This document shows positions 3,445 to 43,556 of a stretch of DNA of 64,000 bases, piece after piece (position 1 is the first letter of the stretch; the number at the start of each line of letters is the position of its first letter). Both the position numbers and the translations under genes were made by a program. The notes below the pieces were generated by a model, which made no database searches, was not told where the DNA came from, and saw only the letters and a program-made list of their open reading frames with translations. Origin of the DNA: an uncultured Acidobacteriaceae bacterium (GTDB lineage: Bacteria > Acidobacteriota > Terriglobia > Terriglobales > Acidobacteriaceae); the NCBI GenBank assembly GCA_963708575.1, contig CAVPTB010000003.1, forward strand, positions 44,379-108,378. The letters run 5' to 3'.

Positions 3445-3580
3445 GAAGGCAAAAGCTATTACGACAAGGACACAGAAGCACGAGGCAAGATCAAGACTTT
3501 CACCACAAAGGACACTAAGGGAACACGAAGGAAGATCAAGGCCCCCCCCAGGGAACAGAGGGCGCGGAGGAATGCAGGTT
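3445..3580 (+). repeat. Family-1 intergenic repeat array (about 3 degenerate ~45-nt units; core CTTTCACCACnAAGGACACTAAGGrrCACGAAGGA)
   Basis: Contains ...ctttcaccacaaaggacactaagggaacacgaaggaagatcaagg..., purine-rich and T-poor on the plus strand. Lies between the convergent stops of the hydrolase and vapC. Confidence 0.8.
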
Positions 3581-3583
3581 AGG

Positions 3584-4000
3584 CTAGGCGAAGGGATTTT
3601 CAATTCGTATGCCGGCGATCAATTGTTGGGCATTCATATCTTCCGAAAGAATTCGCGTGGCTCCGGCTTTGGCGGCGGAGGCGACGATCAAGGCGTCCCA
3701 AAAACTGATGCGAGCTTCGTCCTCCAGGCGGAAGGCTACGGAGATCTCGGCTGAAGTTGTCTCGGTGGACCAGATGGAATAACTGTTGACCACGAGGCGG
3801 GCCACGTCTTTCGGCAGGGGCGCGGCGAATTTCCGAGTTACGTTCACATAGAACTCTTGCAACACTTGCGGGCTGAGAACGCCGGTGCGCTCGGTCCACA
3901 AAGTTCGCAGGACGGTTTTCGCGGCTTCATGCTTTGTCTTAGCGTCGGCGTCGTGAGCATAGATCAGGACGTTGGTGTCGACGAAGGTTCTATCGCTCAT
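3584..4000 (-). CDS. vapC: Type II toxin, PIN-domain ribonuclease VapC
   Basis: 138 aa, N-terminus FVDTNVLIYAHD (PIN acidic motif). 11-nt overlap with the upstream small antitoxin gene. Confidence 0.9.
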   Translation of the reverse strand: MSDRTFVDTNVLIYAHDADAKTKHEAAKTVLRTLWTERTGVLSPQVLQEFYVNVTRKFAAPLPKDVARLVVNSYSIWSTETTSAEISVAFRLEDEARISFWDALIVASAAKAGATRILSEDMNAQQLIAGIRIENPFA

Positions 4001-4226
4001 GCCATTGGTCGCGAGAGGCGGAAATCAGACCTCCGAGGTGAAAGCCTTGATCGAGCAGAGCCATGGCTTGGCGCTCAGCCCGTTCATAGGCCTCTTCCTC
4101 GCCTACCAAGAGCTCAATCTGCTGCGCCAGGAGGCCGGTAATGGAGGTCTCGCGCCTTGCGGCCAGGATCTTGGCTTTGCGGATCGTTTCTTTTGTCAGG
4201 CTAATCGTTATATTTTGCTTATACAT
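3990..4226 (-). CDS. vapB: Type II antitoxin (ribbon-helix-helix-like, VapB)
   Basis: 78 aa. N-terminal beta-strand/helix pattern NITISLTKETIRKAKILAARRETSITGLL. Overlaps vapC. Confidence 0.8.
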   Translation of the reverse strand: MYKQNITISLTKETIRKAKILAARRETSITGLLAQQIELLVGEEEAYERAERQAMALLDQGFHLGGLISASRDQWHER

Positions 4227-7828: not shown

Positions 7829-8953
7829 TTACTTGGTGTTGAGCATGATGGCGACTTTGCCCTTGTCCCAGATAGGGATGGCTAGGTCGGGGGCGCCGTC
7901 GTGGTTGAAGTCGCCGGAGGCAATCGACATCCCACCCGTAAAGTCGATGGTTTCATTGAACGGATGCGCGGGGCCGAATCCTCCCTTGCCATCGCCATAG
8001 AAGAGATACGAATCGTCTGTGTTTGGCACACAAGCAACGTCCAGTTTGTTATCTAGGTTAAAGTCTGCCACTACGCAAGCCTCCGGCGCATAGCAATTGT
8101 TGCATTCGGGAAAATGGAAGTTTGGTTTTCCGAATGTGCCATCGCCATTGTTCAAGAGCACGACCATGGCCTGAGACGAATCGGCAAGTACTAAGTCCTG
8201 TTTGCCGTTATTTCGCAGATCTGCGACTTCAACATCAGATATCCCGCCCCCGCCGGCGTCGTAGTTTATCGGGGTATTGAACTTCCCGCTGCCATCGTTC
8301 AACAATATGGAAACATATCCGCTGATGTTAGTCACCGCCAGATCGGGGTGTTTATCTCCATTTAGATCGGCAGCCGCCACTGCCCAAGGCGTTCGTCCCA
8401 GCTTGTACTTCACAGGTTTCTGTTTGAGTTTGCCAGTTCCCGTACCCATGAAAACCGTCACATAACCGCCATTGGCGGCTATCGCCAGATCTACATTGCC
8501 GTCCCCATTGAAGTCTGCGGTTGCTACCCCGGTAGGTTCAACTCCGGCTTTGTAGGATGCCGATTGTTTAAACTTTCCCGTCCCGTCCCCCAAAAAGATA
8601 GCAACGGTGCCCTCCCCGCTGCCAGTGTACTCAACCACCGCTAAGTCCTGATTGCCATCGCCATTGAAGTCAGCGACCGCTAAAGCAAGCGGACTTTGGA
8701 CTGGAAAGTGGATAGGTTTTTGAAAAGTTCCGTCGCCATTCCCCAAGAGGATTCTGACATCATTTCCAGCAAAACCGGCAATCGCAATATCAAGGTTGCC
8801 ACTTGGGGTAAAGCTATCGACAACTATGCCATATAGCAGATCGCGGGAGTTCACAGCGTAGTAAGCCGGCCGCCGGAACTGTCCAGCAGAGGCCAAGGTT
8901 GATGCAAAGATTACAGCCAAAACCGTTCTCAACACCGAATTCACGCGTGCCAT
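7829..8953 (-). CDS. Secreted FG-GAP/VCBS repeat protein (tandem paralog B)
   Basis: Signal peptide MARVNSVLRTVLAVIFASTLASAGQ and repeated ADFNGDGNxDLAV / DLNGDKHPDLAV FG-GAP motifs. About 90 percent identical by eye to the upstream gene. Confidence 0.85.
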   Translation of the reverse strand: MARVNSVLRTVLAVIFASTLASAGQFRRPAYYAVNSRDLLYGIVVDSFTPSGNLDIAIAGFAGNDVRILLGNGDGTFQKPIHFPVQSPLALAVADFNGDGNQDLAVVEYTGSGEGTVAIFLGDGTGKFKQSASYKAGVEPTGVATADFNGDGNVDLAIAANGGYVTVFMGTGTGKLKQKPVKYKLGRTPWAVAAADLNGDKHPDLAVTNISGYVSILLNDGSGKFNTPINYDAGGGGISDVEVADLRNNGKQDLVLADSSQAMVVLLNNGDGTFGKPNFHFPECNNCYAPEACVVADFNLDNKLDVACVPNTDDSYLFYGDGKGGFGPAHPFNETIDFTGGMSIASGDFNHDGAPDLAIPIWDKGKVAIMLNTK

Positions 8954-8967
8954 TTCGATCATTCTAA

Positions 8968-10092
8968 CTATTTCGCGTTGATCATGACGGCGACCTTGCC
9001 TTTGTCCCAGATGGGAATCGCCAAGTCGGGGGCTTCATCGTGGTTGAAGTCGCCCACAGCAATCGACATCCCTCCATGGAAATCTATAGTCTCATTGAAG
9101 GGATGCGCCGGGCCGAATCCTCCCTTGCCATCGCCATAAAAGAAATAAGAATCATCTATGTTTGCCACGCAAGCAACATCAAGTTTGCCATCTAAATTAA
9201 AGTCCGCTACCAAGCAAGCCTCTGGCCCTACACAATTCTTGCACTTGGGGAAATGAAACTGGGGTTTGCCAAAGGTGCCGTCTCCATTGTTCAAGAGCAC
9301 GACCATGGCCTGAGAAGTGTCGGCGAGCACTAGGTCCTGCTTGCCGTTGTCACGCAGATCTGCAACTTTGACGTCAGAAGTCGCCCCCCCTCCTGCATCG
9401 TAATTTACTGGAGTAGCGAACTTCCCGCTGCCATCGTTCAACAATATGGAAACATATCCGCTGATGTTAGTCACCGCCAGATCGGGGTGTTTATCTCCAT
9501 TTAGATCGGCAGCCGCCACTGCCCAAGGCGTTCGTCCCAGCTTGTACTTCACAGGTTTCTGTTTGAGTTTGCCAGTTCCCGTACCCATGAAAACCGTCAC
9601 ATAGCCGCCATTGGCGGCGATCGCCAAATCTACGTTGCCGTCCCCATTGAAGTCTGCGGTTGCTACCCCTGTAGGCTCTACTCCGGCGTTGTAGGAAGCC
9701 GATTGCTTGAATTTTCCCGTCCCATCCCCCAAGAAGATGGCGATGTTGCCTTGACCGCTGCCGGTGTACTCAACCACTGCTAAATCCTGATTGCCGTCGC
9801 CGTTAAAGTCAGCGACCGCTAAAGCAAGCGGACTTTGGACTGGAAAGTGTATAGGTTTTTGAAAAGTTCCGTCGCCATTCCCCAAGAGGATTCTGACATC
9901 ATTTCCAGCAAAACCGGCAATCGCAATATCAAGGTTGCCACTTGGGGTAAAGCTATCGACAACTATGCCATATAGCAGATCGCGGGAGTTCACAGCGTAG
10001 TAAGCCGGCCGCCGGAACTGTCCGGCAGAGGCCAAACTGGAAGCAAAAACTACAGCCAAAACCACCATTAAGACCGAATTCACGCGTGCCAT
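8968..10092 (-). CDS. Secreted FG-GAP/VCBS repeat protein (tandem paralog A)
   Basis: Same architecture. ATG at 10092 is preceded by a GGGGTGA SD. The nominal ORF extends to 10131. Confidence 0.85.
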   Translation of the reverse strand: MARVNSVLMVVLAVVFASSLASAGQFRRPAYYAVNSRDLLYGIVVDSFTPSGNLDIAIAGFAGNDVRILLGNGDGTFQKPIHFPVQSPLALAVADFNGDGNQDLAVVEYTGSGQGNIAIFLGDGTGKFKQSASYNAGVEPTGVATADFNGDGNVDLAIAANGGYVTVFMGTGTGKLKQKPVKYKLGRTPWAVAAADLNGDKHPDLAVTNISGYVSILLNDGSGKFATPVNYDAGGGATSDVKVADLRDNGKQDLVLADTSQAMVVLLNNGDGTFGKPQFHFPKCKNCVGPEACLVADFNLDGKLDVACVANIDDSYFFYGDGKGGFGPAHPFNETIDFHGGMSIAVGDFNHDEAPDLAIPIWDKGKVAVMINAK

Positions 10093-15612: not shown

Positions 15613-17127
15613 TCAGTTTTCGACCAGAATCGGGATCAATCCAATTGGAACTTTGCCGCCAGAGATGGTGTGAGTGTTTCCATAAAGGTCGCGATACTGA
15701 GTGGCCCAACCGGGCGCCGAGCGCAGCACCGTGTTGCAAACGCCGCCGGTGTTGTCGCAGCTTTGAGAAACGTCCCACGCGGCCTCGGCCTTGTATCCAG
15801 CAGAGCCGGTGAAGTTGCAGGTCCAGACACCCACCGGGGAAACCAGCGCGGCACAGGGAGCGGTGGGAGTGATTCCGGTGAGCCAATTGGTGAGATACAT
15901 GTAGGCATAGCCCGCCGGAGTGAGGCTGGTGTTCCAGAAGTTGCCGGTACTCGAGAGGCCGCCGCTGACGAAGTCCCAGCCATACCAACTGAATCCCGCC
16001 ATGCTGTTGCACGGAGTAGGTTGGCAAGCAGTGTTGCTGGCTTGAACGAGATAGTAGATGCCGGTGAAGGCGCGCTCCTGTGTATCGGCGGTTTGAGGAG
16101 CGGTTGGATAAGCGATCCAGGTGTTGGGGTCGAAGGTGCATCCGGTCGGCTTGCAGTTGGCTCCCCAACTTCCTTCGGTGTCGTAAATTTGCTTGGTTGT
16201 GTAGGCAGAGACGACGCTTTGAACATTGGCAACGAGCGATGCGACACAGACCGCGCCGGATGCGGGGTCGGGATTGGTCGACTCCGTGCCCTGAGCGGGG
16301 ATCGCGACGTACCCGTGAAAGCCGATGATGTCGGCATACTGGGGAATGATGTTGGTTGAGCCTCCGAGTTTTTGACCCAATAACGTGTTGAGATAGTTTG
16401 CGATTTTCGACGGGCTGGCGATGCAGTCAACCGCCGGGGGCACTGGCTGCGCAGAGGTTGGCGGCGGGCTGATGATGAGCACGCCGGAATCGATCGCCTT
16501 CGCCGTGATATTCGCGTCTTCGGTGAGTCTTGCCAACGCGGCCTGAGTGCAATTGTGTGAGGCATTGCATTCGGTCGAAACATTGGGCTCGTTCCACACT
16601 TCGATGTACTTGATCAACCCCGTACCGAAGGTGGTGACCACGTGGTTCATCAACGTGGAGATGAAGGTTTTCCAAATCGTATCCGTGCCCGTTCCGTCGG
16701 TGTTCACGTCGGTGGGCAGATCACAGCCGCTGGGCTGAGAGGCGAACGCGCACGATGTATCGCCACTCGTTCCGGTGTAGGCGGTAAAACATTCGGGGGT
16801 GTAATACGCCGTGAACATCACGACCTGACCGTTGTTCTTGGCCAAGGTCAGCCACTTGTCCAAATTCGTCCAGGTGTACTGCCCGCTGGTGCAGTTGTAC
16901 ACGTCTGCCCACTTGATCGAACTGCCGAGCGTCCGATAAGTGCCGAATGTAATTCCTGTCACCGTGGAAGGCCATGGATCAGAACTGTTGTTGGCATTGA
17001 TGTCCATCGCGAAGAAACTATTCGTAACGGATGGCGGCTTAATGACGAGATCCTGGCTGAAAGCTGGTACAGCAAGGATTGCGCCTAAGATGAGCCCGAC
17101 GACAACTGCACGGGTCCCGTTTTTCAT
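15613..17127 (-). CDS. Secreted glycoside hydrolase, clan GH-A (TIM barrel; GH5/GH39-like)
   Basis: Signal peptide plus IKYIEVWNEPN (the clan GH-A NEP acid/base motif). AAGGAG SD. Confidence 0.75.
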   Translation of the reverse strand: MKNGTRAVVVGLILGAILAVPAFSQDLVIKPPSVTNSFFAMDINANNSSDPWPSTVTGITFGTYRTLGSSIKWADVYNCTSGQYTWTNLDKWLTLAKNNGQVVMFTAYYTPECFTAYTGTSGDTSCAFASQPSGCDLPTDVNTDGTGTDTIWKTFISTLMNHVVTTFGTGLIKYIEVWNEPNVSTECNASHNCTQAALARLTEDANITAKAIDSGVLIISPPPTSAQPVPPAVDCIASPSKIANYLNTLLGQKLGGSTNIIPQYADIIGFHGYVAIPAQGTESTNPDPASGAVCVASLVANVQSVVSAYTTKQIYDTEGSWGANCKPTGCTFDPNTWIAYPTAPQTADTQERAFTGIYYLVQASNTACQPTPCNSMAGFSWYGWDFVSGGLSSTGNFWNTSLTPAGYAYMYLTNWLTGITPTAPCAALVSPVGVWTCNFTGSAGYKAEAAWDVSQSCDNTGGVCNTVLRSAPGWATQYRDLYGNTHTISGGKVPIGLIPILVEN

Positions 17128-17319
17128 GGTGATTCTCCTTAGATTTTGAGTTGACGATCGTGGGACGAAATCAGTGGGTGCGGAATGCTAGCTCGACCCG
17201 GAGTGTGCAAAAAGAATCGGAAGGGACCATCCGCGAAAAACGGACAGAGTTGATTTCAAAGGGGGAGTTCGGGTGAGGTTCAGATGTGTTTCTGGATTCG
17301 AGAAACGGAGAATCCAAGG

Positions 17320-17354
17320 ACGAGATTAATAAGCGAAATCCGGAACGATTTCGC
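17320..17354 (-). terminator. Hairpin after the arginase gene (candidate terminator)
   Basis: GCGAAAUC-loop-GAUUUCGC followed by UUAUUAAUCU on the minus strand. A second hairpin UGGAUUC/GAAUCCA lies at 17292-17316. Confidence 0.4.
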
Positions 17355-17373
17355 GGGCGACAGCAATCCTGGC

Positions 17374-18312
17374 TTAGAGAATCTTTTTTCCGAAAGCCGA
17401 CAAGGTCAGTTCGACGGCTAGATCGGCAGTCTGATTGTGCTCGTCGATGACGGGGTTGACCTCGACGATTTCGAGGCTCAACATGCGGCCGTGGTCGGAA
17501 ATGATCTCCATGGCCAAGTGCGCTTCGCGATAAGTGGCGCCGCCCCAGACTGGGGTACCGACACCGGGGGCGTCTTCGGGATCGATCCAGTCCATGTCGA
17601 GCGAGACGTGATAGCCGGCAGTCCCGCGTCCAGCCATGCGCAGGGCTTCCTCCATGACGGAGCGCATGCCACGCTCGTCAATGTCGCGCATGGTGAAGAC
17701 TTCGACCCCGGCTTTGCGGATGTTTTCCTTTTCGTGGGAATCGACGTCGCGAATACCGACGAGGACACAATTTTCGGCTTCAATCTTGGGCGAGAATCCG
17801 CCGATATTGGCCAACTCTGCAGGACCGAGTCCGACGATCGCGGCCAGAGGCATGCCATGCACGTTGCCGCTGGGAGAAGTTTCCGGTGTGTTGATGTCGC
17901 TGTGCGCGTCAATCCAGATGAGACCGATTTTCTGATCCTTCTTACGGTAGAAGTCGGCAACGCCGGTAACGGTGCCGACGGCGATGGAGTGATCTCCACC
18001 GAGAACGAGTGGCACCTGGCCGGACTCAAGCGTTTTGGCCACCAGTTCCGCCTGCTTGGTGCAGGTGGCAGTAATTTCTTTGAGATATTTTGCGTTGGGG
18101 TCGCCTTCTTTTTTCAGTTCAGCCATGGCGACGGGGACGTTGCCTCCATCTTCGACGATGTGGCCGAGGGCTTCGAGGCGCGCCTCGAGGCCAGCAACAC
18201 GAACGGCGGAGGGCCCCATGTCAACTCCTCGACGAGATTGGCCGAGATCGAGGGGAACACCGATCACACGAATTTTGCGAGGAACAATGTTGGAATGAGA
18301 TCGAGTAGGCAT
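17374..18312 (-). CDS. rocF: Arginase (ureohydrolase family)
   Basis: Mn-binding motifs GGDHSIAVG, DAHSDINT, SLDMDWIDP. Confidence 0.9.
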   Translation of the reverse strand: MPTRSHSNIVPRKIRVIGVPLDLGQSRRGVDMGPSAVRVAGLEARLEALGHIVEDGGNVPVAMAELKKEGDPNAKYLKEITATCTKQAELVAKTLESGQVPLVLGGDHSIAVGTVTGVADFYRKKDQKIGLIWIDAHSDINTPETSPSGNVHGMPLAAIVGLGPAELANIGGFSPKIEAENCVLVGIRDVDSHEKENIRKAGVEVFTMRDIDERGMRSVMEEALRMAGRGTAGYHVSLDMDWIDPEDAPGVGTPVWGGATYREAHLAMEIISDHGRMLSLEIVEVNPVIDEHNQTADLAVELTLSAFGKKIL

Positions 18313-18327
18313 AGGGTTATTTTAGAG

Positions 18328-18364
18328 GGCGTTCACCGCCGAGAGCGCAGAGGTCGCCGAGACA
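18328..18364 (+). repeat. Family-1-related repeat, GC-rich variant (GGCGTTCACCGCCGAGAGCGCAGAGGTCGCCGAG), copy 1
   Basis: Direct repeat of 18440-18470. Reverse complement of 18911-18944 with one mismatch. Confidence 0.8.
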
Positions 18365-18438
18365 ATCATTTATAAAGGCTTTCGCTGAACTTCGTCTCAG
18401 GACTCTTTTCCATTCCTCGTTCTTATCCGCCGTTCCAG

Positions 18439-18475
18439 AGCGTTCACCGCCGAGAGCGCAGAGGTCGCCGCGACA
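18439..18475 (+). repeat. Same repeat, copy 2, 21 nt below the GxxExxY stop
   Basis: gcgttcaccgccgagagcgcagaggtcgccg is identical to copy 1 over 31 nt. Confidence 0.8.
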
Positions 18476-18495
18476 AATAACCCAGAAGGTGCTTC

Positions 18496-18909
18496 TCAGT
18501 TCCGCATCAAGGTCGAGTCGGGGAATTCGTTCACTATTCCTTTCAGACCGTCTTTCAAGATGCGCACGTGAGAGTTGAGTAACAGTCCGACCCGTTTACC
18601 CGACAGCTTAAGGTACGAAAGCAACTGCGCATCGTGAATCGGCGCAAGGTGCTCGATCGCTTTGACCTCCACGATGACCGAATCATCGACCAGCAAATCC
18701 AGCCGATACCCGCAATCCAGTTTCACTTGCTTGTAAGTTATCGGCAATGGCAGTTGTTGTTCCACCTTGAAGCCAAGCTCACGCAATTCATACGCCAGGC
18801 AGACCTCGTATGCTGATTCGAGGAGGCCCGGCCCAAGAGCCTTATGCACCTCGGCTGCCGCGCCAATGATGCCTCGGGTGATCGAGTCGAGCCTGTTCTT
18901 TTCTTCCAT
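18496..18909 (-). CDS. GxxExxY protein (PD-(D/E)XK nuclease-like; family known from 23S rRNA intervening sequences)
   Basis: 137 aa. ...GPGLLESAYEVCLAYEL (GxxExxY), ...DLLVDDSVIVEVKA (D...ExK). Confidence 0.9.
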   Translation of the reverse strand: MEEKNRLDSITRGIIGAAAEVHKALGPGLLESAYEVCLAYELRELGFKVEQQLPLPITYKQVKLDCGYRLDLLVDDSVIVEVKAIEHLAPIHDAQLLSYLKLSGKRVGLLLNSHVRILKDGLKGIVNEFPDSTLMRN

Positions 18910-18910
18910 C

Positions 18911-18944
18911 CTCGGCGCCCTCTGCGCTCTCGGCGGTGAACGCC
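18911..18944 (-). repeat. Same repeat, inverted copy, filling the gap between the asnS stop and the GxxExxY start
   Basis: The reverse complement of ctcggcgccctctgcgctctcggcggtgaacgcc is ggcgttcaccgccgagagcgcagagggcgccgag. Confidence 0.8.
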
Positions 18945-18945
18945 A

Positions 18946-20269
18946 CTACGGATACAGCCGGTTCAGCGTTCTGGGGAACGGAATGGTTTCTCGGACATGC
19001 TCCAAGCCGCAGATCCAGGCCACGGCGCGCTCAATGCCCATGCCGAAACCGGCGTGGGGAACGCCGCCAAATTTTCGCAGGTCGAGATACCAGTTGAAGG
19101 CTTCTTCGGGCAAGCCATGTTCGTGAATGCGCTGGAGGAGCAGGTCGTAGGACGCCATACGCTGCGATCCTCCGATAATTTCTCCGTAGCCTTCGGGGGC
19201 CAGAACATCGACACAGAGCGCAAGGTCCGGGACGTTTCGGATCGGGCTCCATGTAAAACGCTTTGACCTTGGCGGGATAGCGATGCACCATCACCGGCTT
19301 GTCGAATTGCGAGGAGATGTAAGTTTCGTCGGGCGAGCCGAGGTCTCCGCCCCATTCAAAATTGTTTTCGAGCGCACCTTTGGCGTGGGCGTCTTGCAGC
19401 ATCTTGACGGCCTCGTCGTAGGTGATGCGAGGGAACGGGGCCTCGATCTTTTCCAGCTTCGCAACATCGCGGCCGATAGTCTGCAGGTCGGGACGGCGCT
19501 TTTCGAGGCAGCGCTTGACGATGAAGCTGATGAAGTTCTCGGCGAGTTCCATGATGTCGTCGAGTTCGCCGTACGCGACCTCGGGTTCGACCATCCAGAA
19601 TTCGGTGAGGTGACGGCGGGTCTTGGACTTTTCCGCGCGAAACGTGGGTCCGAAAGAATAGACCTTGCCCAGTGCCATAGCGGTTGCTTCGATATAGAGC
19701 TGGCCGGATTGAGTGAGGAAAGCCTGTTCCTCGAAGTAATCGACGGGGAATAGCGTCGTGGTGCCTTCGCAAGCGGCAGGCGTGAGGATCGGCGGATCGG
19801 TGAGGGTGAAGCCGCGTTCGTCGAAGAAGTCGCGAGCGGCTTTGATGATTTCGGCGCGGACACGCAGGATCGCAGCTTGCCGCAGGGAGCGCACCCAGAG
19901 GTGGCGATGCTCCATGAGGAATTCGGTGCCGTGCTCTTTAGGAGTAATTGGGTAAGGCGTCGATTCCGGGACCCGTTGCACAATCTGGACATTCGATACG
20001 TCGAGCTCGAAGCCCCCGGGGGCGCGTTTGTCAGCCCGAACCTTGCCTTCGACTATGACGCTCGATTCCTGGGTGAGGGTCTTGATGGCGTCGAAGACTT
20101 CGGGAGCGACGGCATTCTTGGGAACGACTCCCTGAATCACTCCGGAGCCATCGCGAAATTGGGGGAAGAGCAATTTGCCACTCTCCCGCAGGTTGTACAG
20201 CCAGCCTCGGATAGTAACGGTCTGGCCATCATGTTTACCGATATCAACGATCGTGGTGACAGGAGACAT
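18946..20269 (-). pseudogene. asnS: Asparagine--tRNA ligase, frame-disrupted (or indel error)
   Basis: ORF 19031-20269 carries class II motifs ([21 protein letters not shown]) up to ...KAFYMEPDP. The C-terminus ([29 protein letters not shown]...[15 protein letters not shown]...[10 protein letters not shown]) is in the frame of ORF 18946-19158. The junction is at about 19222-19245. Confidence 0.9.
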
Positions 20270-20282
20270 AAGAATTTATAAT

Positions 20283-20412
20283 TTTGTGATTCGATTGAGT
20301 AATTTGTAATCGGCAATTGAGCAATTGGAAAGCGCGCAGTTCAATTACAAATACAGATCGAAAGTCACAGATCTTCCAATTTACCCAATCCAACAATTAC
20401 GCAATCGCCCAA
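20283..20412. repeat. Family-2 AT-rich palindromic repeat (heptamer-like AATTACn units in inverted arms)
   Basis: cgattgagtaatttgtaatcggcaattgagcaattgg ... tcaattacaaatac ... ccaatttacccaatccaacaattacgcaatcg. Lies between the asnS start and the downstream gene stop. Confidence 0.7.
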
Positions 20413-20415
20413 ATT

Positions 20416-21237
20416 TTAAGCTGCATCCAGCTTGTCGAAGGTTTCTTTCATCTTCTCGACCGGATTTACCTTTTCGTCTTCTTCAATCTCAAGCAGCAAT
20501 GGCGGGGTATGCGGCGAGGAACGCAGCAATTCCATGGATTGCTTCCAGTCGATGGTTCCTGCTCCGGGCCATAAGTGCGAATCGCGATCTTTAGAATTAT
20601 CGTGGACATGCGTCGAGCGAATGTAGTCCTTCAGGGTCTCAAAGGCCTGGGGAATATCGCTCATGATGTGGGCGTGGCCAAGATCGAAGCATACGCCGAC
20701 ATCGTCGAAGTGGGCCGCCCGTATAAATTCGACGAGGCGCTCGGGCGTGCTCATTTCGTTGGGAATGTTCTCCACCAGGACGCGCACCCCGAGAGGCTTG
20801 GCGAAGGCGCGAAGATGTTCGACGGAGGTCATGGCGGCTTCGAACTTGCGTTCATCGAAGGACTCGTCGGGAACGCCGAGATGTTGAATCAGGAAGCGGA
20901 ATGGAATTTGTTCAGCAATTTCAAGAGCGCGCTTGATCTCGTCCATGGCCTCGATGCGGCCGGCGCGATCGGTGGAAGCAACGTTGATGGGTGGCGCGCC
21001 GGCGCGTCCCCACTCGAAGTCAGCGTAGAGCGGAGCGTGCACGGAACTGAGGGGAACCCCGCTGCCGCGAAACCAGTCGGCAAGCTCGCGAACATGCTGC
21101 TTGCGGTTCGCGTAGTCCACGTGTTGGCGGGCAGCAAAAATTTCGATGGCCTGGGCTCCGCCGCGCACCAGTCCATCGAGCAGGCCGGGATGCAGGCGTT
21201 CTTTGACATAAATAAAGGTGGAGATCGCCTTTAACAT
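20416..21237 (-). CDS. Sugar phosphate isomerase/epimerase (xylose isomerase-like TIM barrel)
   Basis: 273 aa with typical AP-endonuclease-2/TIM pattern (...VLVENIPNE..., CFDLGHAHI..., HVHDN). Confidence 0.85.
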   Translation of the reverse strand: MLKAISTFIYVKERLHPGLLDGLVRGGAQAIEIFAARQHVDYANRKQHVRELADWFRGSGVPLSSVHAPLYADFEWGRAGAPPINVASTDRAGRIEAMDEIKRALEIAEQIPFRFLIQHLGVPDESFDERKFEAAMTSVEHLRAFAKPLGVRVLVENIPNEMSTPERLVEFIRAAHFDDVGVCFDLGHAHIMSDIPQAFETLKDYIRSTHVHDNSKDRDSHLWPGAGTIDWKQSMELLRSSPHTPPLLLEIEEDEKVNPVEKMKETFDKLDAA

Positions 21238-42611: not shown

Positions 42612-42716
42612 ATGTAATTGGCAATTTGTGATTTGTAATTTGAAACCAAACACACCCAGCCGACAGCCTCTCAGGCGGCCGACTTCAATTACCAATTACA
42701 AATTACCCAATCCCAC
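42612..42716. repeat. Family-2 AT-rich palindromic repeat forming a long imperfect hairpin
   Basis: Left arm ggcaatttgtgatttgtaatttgaa versus the reverse complement of the right arm ggtaatttgtaattggtaattgaag. GC-rich central loop. Confidence 0.7.
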
Positions 42717-43435: not shown

Positions 43436-43556
43436 AAAGGGCTCTCACCACCAAGGGCACTAAGGTTGACTAAGGAAATTCGTGGAAGGAATATCCTGGT
43501 CGCTAAGGGCGCTTCGACAAGCTTTAGTCACAAAAGACACTAAGGTTCAGCAAGGC
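43436..43556 (+). repeat. Family-1 repeat array (degenerate)
   Basis: caaagggctctcaccaccaagggcactaaggttgactaagg ... ctttagtcacaaaagacactaaggttcagcaagg. Confidence 0.7.

Follow-up and report, generated by a model that had tools for sequence, protein, structure and literature searches.

Inverted triple-heptamer arms enclose a GxxExxY nuclease-fold gene between asnS and rocF in an uncultured Acidobacteriaceae bacterium

The 64-kb window analyzed here (the whole 64,000-nucleotide stretch of contig CAVPTB010000003.1 from an uncultured Acidobacteriaceae bacterium) carries, between asnS (asparagine-tRNA ligase) and rocF (arginase), a small gene of the GxxExxY family that is enclosed by a near-perfect inverted repeat. 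We find that such inverted arms are the rule for GxxExxY genes, and the locus is an ordinary member of an apparently widespread class. With its arms of three heptamers each and its link to the intervening sequences (IVSs) of 23S rRNA, this class seems to be undescribed in the searchable literature. Our favored explanation, held with middling confidence and drawn by analogy with the rRNA elements, is that the cassette is an intervening-sequence-type gene unit in an mRNA operon, where it would be co-transcribed with its neighbors and its stem of ~30 bp would be cut by RNase III.

The generality of the arms was assessed in 80 GxxExxY loci (37 orthologous and 43 diverse, one genome per species) that were scanned for the arm motif; gene calls in the fetched loci are crude longest-open reading frame (ORF) calls. 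In 33/37 orthologous loci, a 5′ arm precedes the start codon and its inverted 3′ counterpart lies on or beyond the stop. Inverted arms are likewise seen in 34/43 of the diverse loci, 27 of them with the standard polarity and 7 reversed. Taken together, paired inverted arms flank the gene in 67/80 GxxExxY loci, as compared to 1/229 control ORFs of the same loci; some arm lies near 19% of these control ORFs. The diverse loci come from Acidobacteriota, Chloroflexota, Planctomycetota, Bacteroidota, Proteobacteria, Myxococcota, Gemmatimonadota, Chlamydiota, and Verrucomicrobiota, and cassettes with like arms occupy at least 30 genomic contexts other than the one in the window. The first-pass annotation of this DNA, which had likened the locus to an rRNA IVS, staked its proposal on other GxxExxY copies being flanked in the same manner, as these counts show them to be.

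The arms are closely fitted to the gene. In 49 orthologues, the 5′ arm begins 3–15 nt past the asnS stop and ends 0–25 nt before the start codon, and in many lineages the arms directly adjoin the start codon and extend into the final ORF codons. The heptamers are written in dialects that differ by lineage (CGCCGAG, CACAGAG, CGCAAAG/CGCGAAG, CGCGGAG, CACGGAG, and CACCAAG). The dialect is common to both arms of a cassette, the arms changing together, and it shows no dependence on host G+C content; CACAGAG, for example, spans 30% to 66% G+C. In Bacteroidota, GxxExxY genes are found within long arrays of alternating arms. A few other small genes without a Pfam match are also found inside like arms (L023:1277–1888, L036:673–1065, and L052:2441–2938), sometimes in tandem with a GxxExxY cassette, and therefore the frame is not strictly tied to one cargo. 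The gene upstream of the cassette is co-oriented with it in 33/41 diverse loci, often at a distance of merely 15–130 nt.

The features of the locus in the window are the following, in the direction of transcription:

18946..20269, minus strand: asnS (asparagine-tRNA ligase), the upstream host gene, with a +1 frameshift near 19226–19232
18911..18944, minus strand: 5′ arm, GGCGTTCACC + CGCCGAG-AG-CGCAGAG-GG-CGCCGAG, ending 1 nt short of the ATG
18496..18909, minus strand: GxxExxY/PDDEXK_3 nuclease-fold ORF of 137 aa, assigned by family models, with GLLESAY and D71...E81-x-K83
18437..18476, minus strand: proximal 3′ arm (core 18440–18470), the reverse complement of the 5′ arm with 30/31 positions matching
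18366..18436, minus strand: body of a decayed second mini-cassette, aligned with the intact second hairpin element of orthologues
18326..18365, minus strand: distal 3′ arm of the decayed second cassette, a 40-nt 95% direct repeat of 18437–18476
17374..18312, minus strand: rocF (arginase), the downstream host gene, identified by family-model matches

The inverted repeat that the first-pass annotation had noted around the gene is real, and its positions are confirmed. The 31-nt sequence GCGTTCACCGCCGAGAGCGCAGAGGTCGCCG occurs exactly at 18329–18359 and 18440–18470 on the plus strand and with one mismatch at 18913–18943 on the minus strand, and no chance match (0) is obtained in 100 dinucleotide shuffles. 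A repeat finder returns the inverted pairs 18440–18470/18913–18943 (97% complementary over 31 nt) and 18328–18361/18911–18944 (97% over 34 nt), as well as the direct pair 18326–18365/18437–18476 (95% identical over 40 nt, at a spacing of 111 nt). As read from the sequence, the 36-nt gap between the asnS stop (18946–18948) and the ATG (18907–18909) contains the 34-nt arm, and 25 nt lie between the ORF stop and the end of the proximal 3′ arm core. Folding of 18420–18960 had been proposed as a check, and the stem is recovered in the minus-strand RNA of 18300–18960: the 5′ arm pairs with the proximal 3′ arm and the entire ORF is looped out, with a minimum free energy of −264.8 kcal/mol (z = −5.0 versus 20 shuffles). 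No promoter-like or terminator-like site was found between asnS and rocF, and a terminator-like hairpin is located at 17333–17354, 3′ of rocF. No Rfam family matches the arms or the spacer within 17000–20500.

On the gene strand, the 5′ arm reads (GGCG)TTCACC followed by the heptamers CGCCGAG, CGCAGAG, and CGCCGAG, which are separated by AG and GG and run to 1 nt before the start codon (G-ATG). The general plan is (TTC)ACC and three heptamers C-R-C-N-R-A-G with a period of 9 nt, and the 3′ arms are the reverse complement of this. The window also contains a like-built dispersed repeat, family-1 (TTCACCACCAAGGACACTAAGGxxCACGAAGG). Both repeats consist of TTCACC and three units of ~9 nt, either CGC-N-GAG or CAC-N-AAGG, which bears out the earlier description of the cassette repeat as a GC-rich relative of family-1. 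A degenerate scan finds 13 repeat copies in the window, all of them intergenic and 12 on the plus strand; the sole minus-strand copy is the 5′ arm of the cassette. Relatives of the repeat occur at a density of ~1 per 5 kb, mostly in the CAC-N-AAGG dialect, unlike the cassette arms. Solo arms in the pooled loci show no orientation preference relative to transcription (16 versus 15).

The cargo is, by sequence, a clear member of the GxxExxY/PDDEXK_3 family with conserved catalytic residues. Its sole Pfam and NCBIfam matches are PF13366 PDDEXK_3 (1e-38, 132.7 bits against a cutoff of 22) and TIGR04256 GxxExxY (4e-41, 140.1 bits against a cutoff of 35). The motif residues G28-L-L-E31-S-A-Y34 and D71...E81-V-K83 are invariant or nearly so in 51–80 homologues and across phyla. 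The family is very large, with >8000 proteins at E < 1e-10 and 20,900 clusters at 50% identity (E ≤ 1e-3), and identity between phyla is 55–65%. Among known transposase and homing-endonuclease families the protein has no match. The PDB, searched by sequence and by profile, and PHROGs each gave 0 matches, and PADLOC returned only marginal Cas4 matches (E ~0.01). AlphaFold2 models built with 51 and 80 homologues reach a mean predicted local distance difference test score (pLDDT) of just 50, a consequence of the homologues available, every one of which is ≥60% identical, and Foldseek of this low-confidence model against the PDB gave no match at E < 1. No description of the function or flanks of the family was found in the searchable literature. 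Many homologues end in ...NEFPDSAFSASSAVN and some start with ...FTAEHAENAE...; these repetitive tails (FTAEHAENAE..., ...SAFSASSAVN) arise because the 5′ and 3′ arms get translated. The best-scoring database representatives (P0189–P0196 and P0121) are 260–295 aa long and contain two GxxExxY domains, as tandem cassettes that are truly fused or were merged by gene callers.

Constraint on the arms was examined in 34 nonredundant orthologues; the loci are interrelated, which makes the permutation p-values optimistic. Both arms show essentially no variation at the heptamer positions, and the N position matches between arms somewhat more often than expected. Mismatches between the arms of one locus average 2.8, versus 3.3 with arms swapped between loci (p = 0.003). 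For a fixed 27-bp helix in 22 sequences, 91.1% of cells are paired versus 88.8% in shuffles (0/500 reach the observed value), pairs changed on both sides number 7 versus 4.3 (4/500), and the covariation score is 0.085 versus 0.048 (0/500). In these alignments, there is strong constraint on the sequence of the heptamers and a modest extra constraint, or gene conversion, for complementarity. Such a pattern would fit an RNA stem whose 5′ half is sequence-specific and would also fit two DNA ends read by one protein. The conservation of the heptamers as sequence, beyond pairing, suggests that a sequence-specific reader probably also acts on the arms.

In the explanation that we favor, asnS, the cassette, and rocF would form one transcript, the cassette having no detectable promoter of its own. 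Within this transcript the arms would pair as an interrupted stem of ~30 bp, in which 7-bp helices are separated by 2-nt internal loops, looping out the ORF and burying its start region. A double-strand-specific RNase, RNase III, would then cut the stem, as has been experimentally shown for 23S rRNA IVSs. The cut would free the cassette RNA from the asnS and rocF messages and would gate nuclease expression, probably at the level of translation, given that the stem would bury the start region. The most economical candidate for the reader of the arms is the encoded nuclease, though this is speculative. In favor of this explanation stand the non-chance stem that loops out a bona fide GxxExxY ORF, the recurrence of the arms across phyla, their tight fit in the spacer, the pairing in excess of shuffles, the dialect changes shared by both arms, the Coxiella precedent, and the age of the gene and the selection on it.

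Like the cassette, ORF-bearing 23S IVSs are sporadically distributed, with examples in Leptospira, Coxiella, Xanthomonas, and Brucella, and their cargo is the S23p four-helix-bundle protein. They share with the cassette a 0.4–0.7-kb insert bounded by inverted repeats and a long stem that loops out a small sense-oriented ORF. The parallel with rRNA IVSs drawn in the first-pass annotation is apt. The 23S IVS of Coxiella burnetii is 428 nt long and its inverted repeats form a stem (PMC4990558), which RNase III cuts mid-stem, the 5′ cut falling at the first of three tandem GACAGAT heptamers that extend to the start codon of the internal ORF (PMC4990558). The 5′ arm of the cassette, too, has three tandem heptamers directly before its ORF. 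The two also differ in several respects. The 23S elements reside in helix 25 or 45 of the rRNA, whereas the cassette resides in the asnS–rocF mRNA operon and, being outside rRNA, is not an IVS by definition. The cargo here is a PD-(D/E)XK protein rather than S23p, the ORF is under strong purifying selection, and excision, shown for the rRNA elements, is a prediction for the cassette. The annotation had also listed GxxExxY genes as known cargo of 23S IVSs; this could not be confirmed, and 0/40 diverse loci are in or next to rRNA.

Several observations weigh against an RNA stem processed by RNase III. Cleavage at this locus is inferred by analogy only, and the analogy is incomplete, since the ORF here is under selection and that of Coxiella is in decay, apparently without being translated (PMC4990558). 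Most of the similarity between arms comes from the invariant heptamers, and the 2-nt spacers vary freely and pair at approximately chance level. G-U-compatible transition mismatches are not in excess on the sense strand (53 sense versus 52 antisense-only), and therefore no RNA-specific signature is seen; DNA sites for a symmetric protein would look alike. The 80% rate of co-orientation with the upstream gene does not clearly exceed what is usual in bacteria. Finally, several Bacteroidota have the arms around the ORF in the opposite polarity, and therefore no single arm can be a universal ribosome-binding element. The same reversal rules out the 5′ arm as a universal Shine–Dalgarno array.

For the additional direct copy of the repeat, a scar of another insertion or excision had been suggested. 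The copy is instead the 3′ arm that belongs to a second cassette, arranged in tandem and internally deleted. Eight orthologues (L004, L012, L016, L022, L026, L038, L107, and L003) have a second small element after the full cassette, and in these it consists of a 5′ arm, 25–40 nt, and a 3′ arm. The minis of L003 retain ORF stubs (MNDKGKLDL... / ...FPDSAFSATSAVN). Positions 18366–18436 of the window align with the second element of L004, L012, L016, L022, L026, L038, and L107, and therefore the distal copy is assigned to a decayed tandem mini-cassette. Its 5′ arm has decayed to AACGGCGGATAAGAACGAGGAATG at ~18410–18434, with a residual ATG at 18411–18413 and a remnant of the ORF 3′ end, and its 3′ arm (18326–18365) is intact. 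An independent gain is evident in Proteobacteria: relative to L062, L063 carries a 158-nt insertion in which a spacer and a 5′ arm are followed by a body whose end resembles the ORF 3′ end and then by a 3′ arm, with no clear duplication except the arm itself. The arms in the window differ by 1 mismatch, versus a median of 2–3 in 27 among orthologues; the repeat is this perfect because all three arms share spacer variants, a pattern that suggests recent homogenization of arms within the locus.

The first-pass annotation had also proposed a mobile or RNase III-processed mini-cassette, and for this copy mobility does not hold. All homologues of 60–81% identity in the genome collection (L002–L038) lie between asnS and rocF in Terriglobia. 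The exact proteins P0040 (21 contigs) and P0167 (24 contigs) are always found in the order ggt – AP_endonuc_2 – asnS – GxxExxY – rocF – ddl, which is the gene order of the window. These exact-protein contexts, together with the synteny, rule out a recent insertion or an active transposon at the locus. In 38 intact orthologues, the nonsynonymous divergence (dN) of GxxExxY correlates with that of arginase (r = 0.73), and the ratio of nonsynonymous to synonymous divergence (dN/dS) is 0.056 for GxxExxY versus 0.067 for arginase, with dS ~1 or saturated. The single context and the co-divergence with arginase therefore point to an old, vertically inherited, and repeatedly lost resident.

A metagenome scan with arginase allowed both asnS and rocF to be placed in 58 loci, with the following spacer contents:

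GxxExxY gene: 11/58 loci, three of them frameshifted
Arms only: 8/58 loci
Other inserts, no arms: 4/58 loci
No cassette trace, spacer of 15–288 nt: 35/58 loci

The frameshifted copies are L098, L102, and L115, and two of the eight arms-only loci (L111 and L129) are internally deleted mini-cassettes; in L111 the first 10 and last 17 codons are left between intact arms. On a neighbor-joining tree of arginase, occupied spacers are dispersed among empty ones. The simplest reading of these sequences is that the insertion is ancient, has been lost repeatedly, and is maintained by purifying selection wherever it persists. In the comparison of this interval for empty sites that had been suggested, 35/58 loci lack a trace of the cassette, all 35 being too diverged for insertion junctions to be defined. 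No target-site duplication was found, and no empty/occupied pair was found in a close background.

The foremost alternative, which we consider appreciably less probable than the transcript-level explanation, places the arms on DNA. Here they would be terminal inverted repeats with three binding sites each, which the GxxExxY nuclease cuts or moves, either through transposition or through ORF homing into empty hairpins, for which the arms would supply the homology. The asnS–rocF copy would then be a master, fixed and domesticated, and would maintain the mini-elements at other sites of the genome. Three-site inverted ends invite comparison with the ends of Mu or Tn7, or with repetitive extragenic palindromic (REP) sequences around a REP-associated tyrosine transposase (RAYT) gene. 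Invariance of the heptamers on both arms, while the spacers drift and the synonymous sites of the neighbors are saturated, is typical of protein-binding sites, and a strand-specific wobble signature is absent. L111, L129, and L003 resemble the internal deletion derivatives of miniature inverted-repeat transposable elements, and tandem minis were added beside full cassettes independently in Acidobacteriota and Proteobacteria. The long alternating-arm arrays of Bacteroidota, the dispersal of repeat relatives through the window, and the sheer size of a family that spans many phyla at 55–65% identity, suggestive of horizontal spread, are in keeping with a DNA-level element as well. For RAYTs, moreover, inheritance of a single flanked gene is described as vertical. 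However, recent movement is not evident, identical proteins being found on 45 contigs in one context with close homologues syntenic, and neither a target-site duplication nor a closely matched empty site was found for the cassette. The same arms hold unrelated cargo genes, and therefore the cargo need not be the mobilizing enzyme. The dispersed repeats of the window are mostly in another dialect than the arms, and the protein resembles no known transposase or homing endonuclease. The RNA-stem model and the DNA-level model are not mutually exclusive.

It is unlikely, in our estimation, that the arms are ordinary REP-like intergenic hairpins (mRNA stabilizers, attenuators, or terminators) that the asnS–rocF spacer is prone to hold, with small genes accumulating in or next to them without specific processing or mobility. 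Many "empty" spacers do hold a different hairpin, with arms of 3–4 tandem 7–10-nt units (AATTACC, CAGTTCY, and CATTGAGT), unrelated inserts occur in the same spacer (an LmbE-like gene, a BrnT/BrnA-like pair, and a membrane protein), and roughly a fifth of control ORFs have an arm nearby. These observations do not account for the extreme association of paired arms with GxxExxY genes over control ORFs, nor for arms that abut the start codon and overlap the last codons in many lineages. The mini-cassettes, in addition, keep ORF stubs, and therefore the arms and the gene are one unit.

We regard as very improbable a free-standing homing endonuclease that targets the conserved asnS 3′ end and passes from genome to genome into this single site, through cycles of invasion, decay, and loss. 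Occupied sites are patchy on the arginase tree and stand beside empty sister lineages, frameshifted or internally deleted copies exist (L098, L102, L115, L111, and L129), and the cassette begins a few bases past a highly conserved coding end; but at least 30 other contexts hold related cassettes that have these arms, which makes the arms, not asnS, the common denominator, and the correlation with arginase and the strong purifying selection fit vertical descent with losses. An integron cassette is ruled out, as there is no integrase or attC-like consensus and the units occur as singles between housekeeping genes.

A broader proposal, which we put forward tentatively and think more apt to be wrong than right, is that GxxExxY genes and triple-heptamer arms constitute an unrecognized pan-bacterial class of cassettes that ride in host transcripts and spawn mini-elements and hairpin arrays. 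The class would be a nuclease-based counterpart of REP/RAYT systems, its nuclease reading the heptamers on DNA or RNA and maintaining or spreading them, and the ORF-bearing 23S IVSs would be merely its rRNA-resident subset. The likeness to REP/REPIN–RAYT systems lies in one vertically inherited gene under purifying selection, flanked by an inverted short repeat. In RAYT systems this repeat is also dispersed between genes as hairpin doublets or arrays, and in the window the dispersed relatives of the cassette repeat are mostly of another dialect. In contrast, RAYTs are HUH (IS200/IS605-type) tyrosine transposases and the protein here is of the PD-(D/E)XK type, the arms have three phased heptamers rather than one REP palindrome, and GxxExxY has many paralogues and occurs across phyla. 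Neisseria Correia elements and enterobacterial repetitive intergenic consensus (ERIC) sequences are likewise inverted-repeat elements of transcribed intergenic regions; Correia stems are cut by RNase III, and the elements alter the expression of neighbors. Those elements, however, are noncoding and ~100–150 bp long, whereas the full form here carries a conserved gene and the minis are deletion derivatives. Integron cassettes resemble these units in being promoter-less single genes with imperfect inverted-repeat bounds, tandem stacking, and varied cargo, but the present units have no integrase, attC consensus, or attI–Pc platform and are scattered singly between housekeeping genes.

Where ORF-bearing 23S IVSs, known since ~1990, come from and what they do is still unexplained (PMC4990558). 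The presence of IVS-type packaging in ordinary operons, with a stem, heptamers before a small ORF, and sense orientation, makes this old question approachable. The packaging surrounds a very large uncharacterized nuclease-fold family of ~20,900 clusters at 50% identity in many phyla. Because the gene is kept at one chromosomal site over a depth at which synonymous sites are saturated, a real function, the host's or the element's, is to be expected. The arms also account for odd terminal tails from gene callers and for many spurious small ORFs in such genomes.

Some further observations concern the window and the asnS–rocF spacer. The +1 shift in asnS at 19226–19232 on the minus strand (...CGTCCCGGACCTTGCG...) places the C-terminal 95 aa in another frame, and asnS is likewise split in two in the sister long-read assembly L162; the frameshift is probably an assembly or homopolymer error and not a pseudogene. 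The other spacer inserts are a BrnT/BrnA-like toxin–antitoxin pair (L142), an LmbE-like deacetylase gene (L097/L104/L150), and a small membrane protein (L112), and a family-1-type hairpin lies ahead of the LmbE-like gene in L097 and L104. A second, AT-rich hairpin family, whose arms are 3–4 tandem units of 7–10 nt (AATTACC/TTGGTAATT, with variants CAGTTCY and CATTGAGT), is found in the window at 20292–20407, just upstream of the asnS start, and at 42685–42712. It occupies many "empty" asnS–rocF spacers (L083, L095, L099, L110, L113, L116–L119, L123, L125–L127, L136, and L144).

The family-1 copies at 3499, 4299, 4387, 25635, 25677, 27612, 43444, 43524, 63014, and 63043 are all on the plus strand, mostly as direct tandem pairs 42–111 nt apart between minus-strand genes, which is the orientation of a 3′ arm. 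Adjoining the copy at 43444, CACGAATTTCC (43458–43484, minus strand) is similar to the conserved ...NEFP... codons that precede the GxxExxY 3′ arm; it may derive from a cassette since lost, the similarity being statistically not significant, and no significant further GxxExxY remnant was found in the window. In a coding region at 7830–9821, a direct repeat of 300 nt (79%) is found together with a 44-nt unit present in eight copies spaced by 153–156 nt; the pattern resembles a repeat-domain protein, possibly of the FG-GAP/VCBS-like kind. Finally, a minus-strand pair at 3584–4226, composed of a PIN-domain toxin (3584–4000) and a small antitoxin-like gene (3990–4226), is enclosed by direct family-1 copies at 3499 and 4299/4387.

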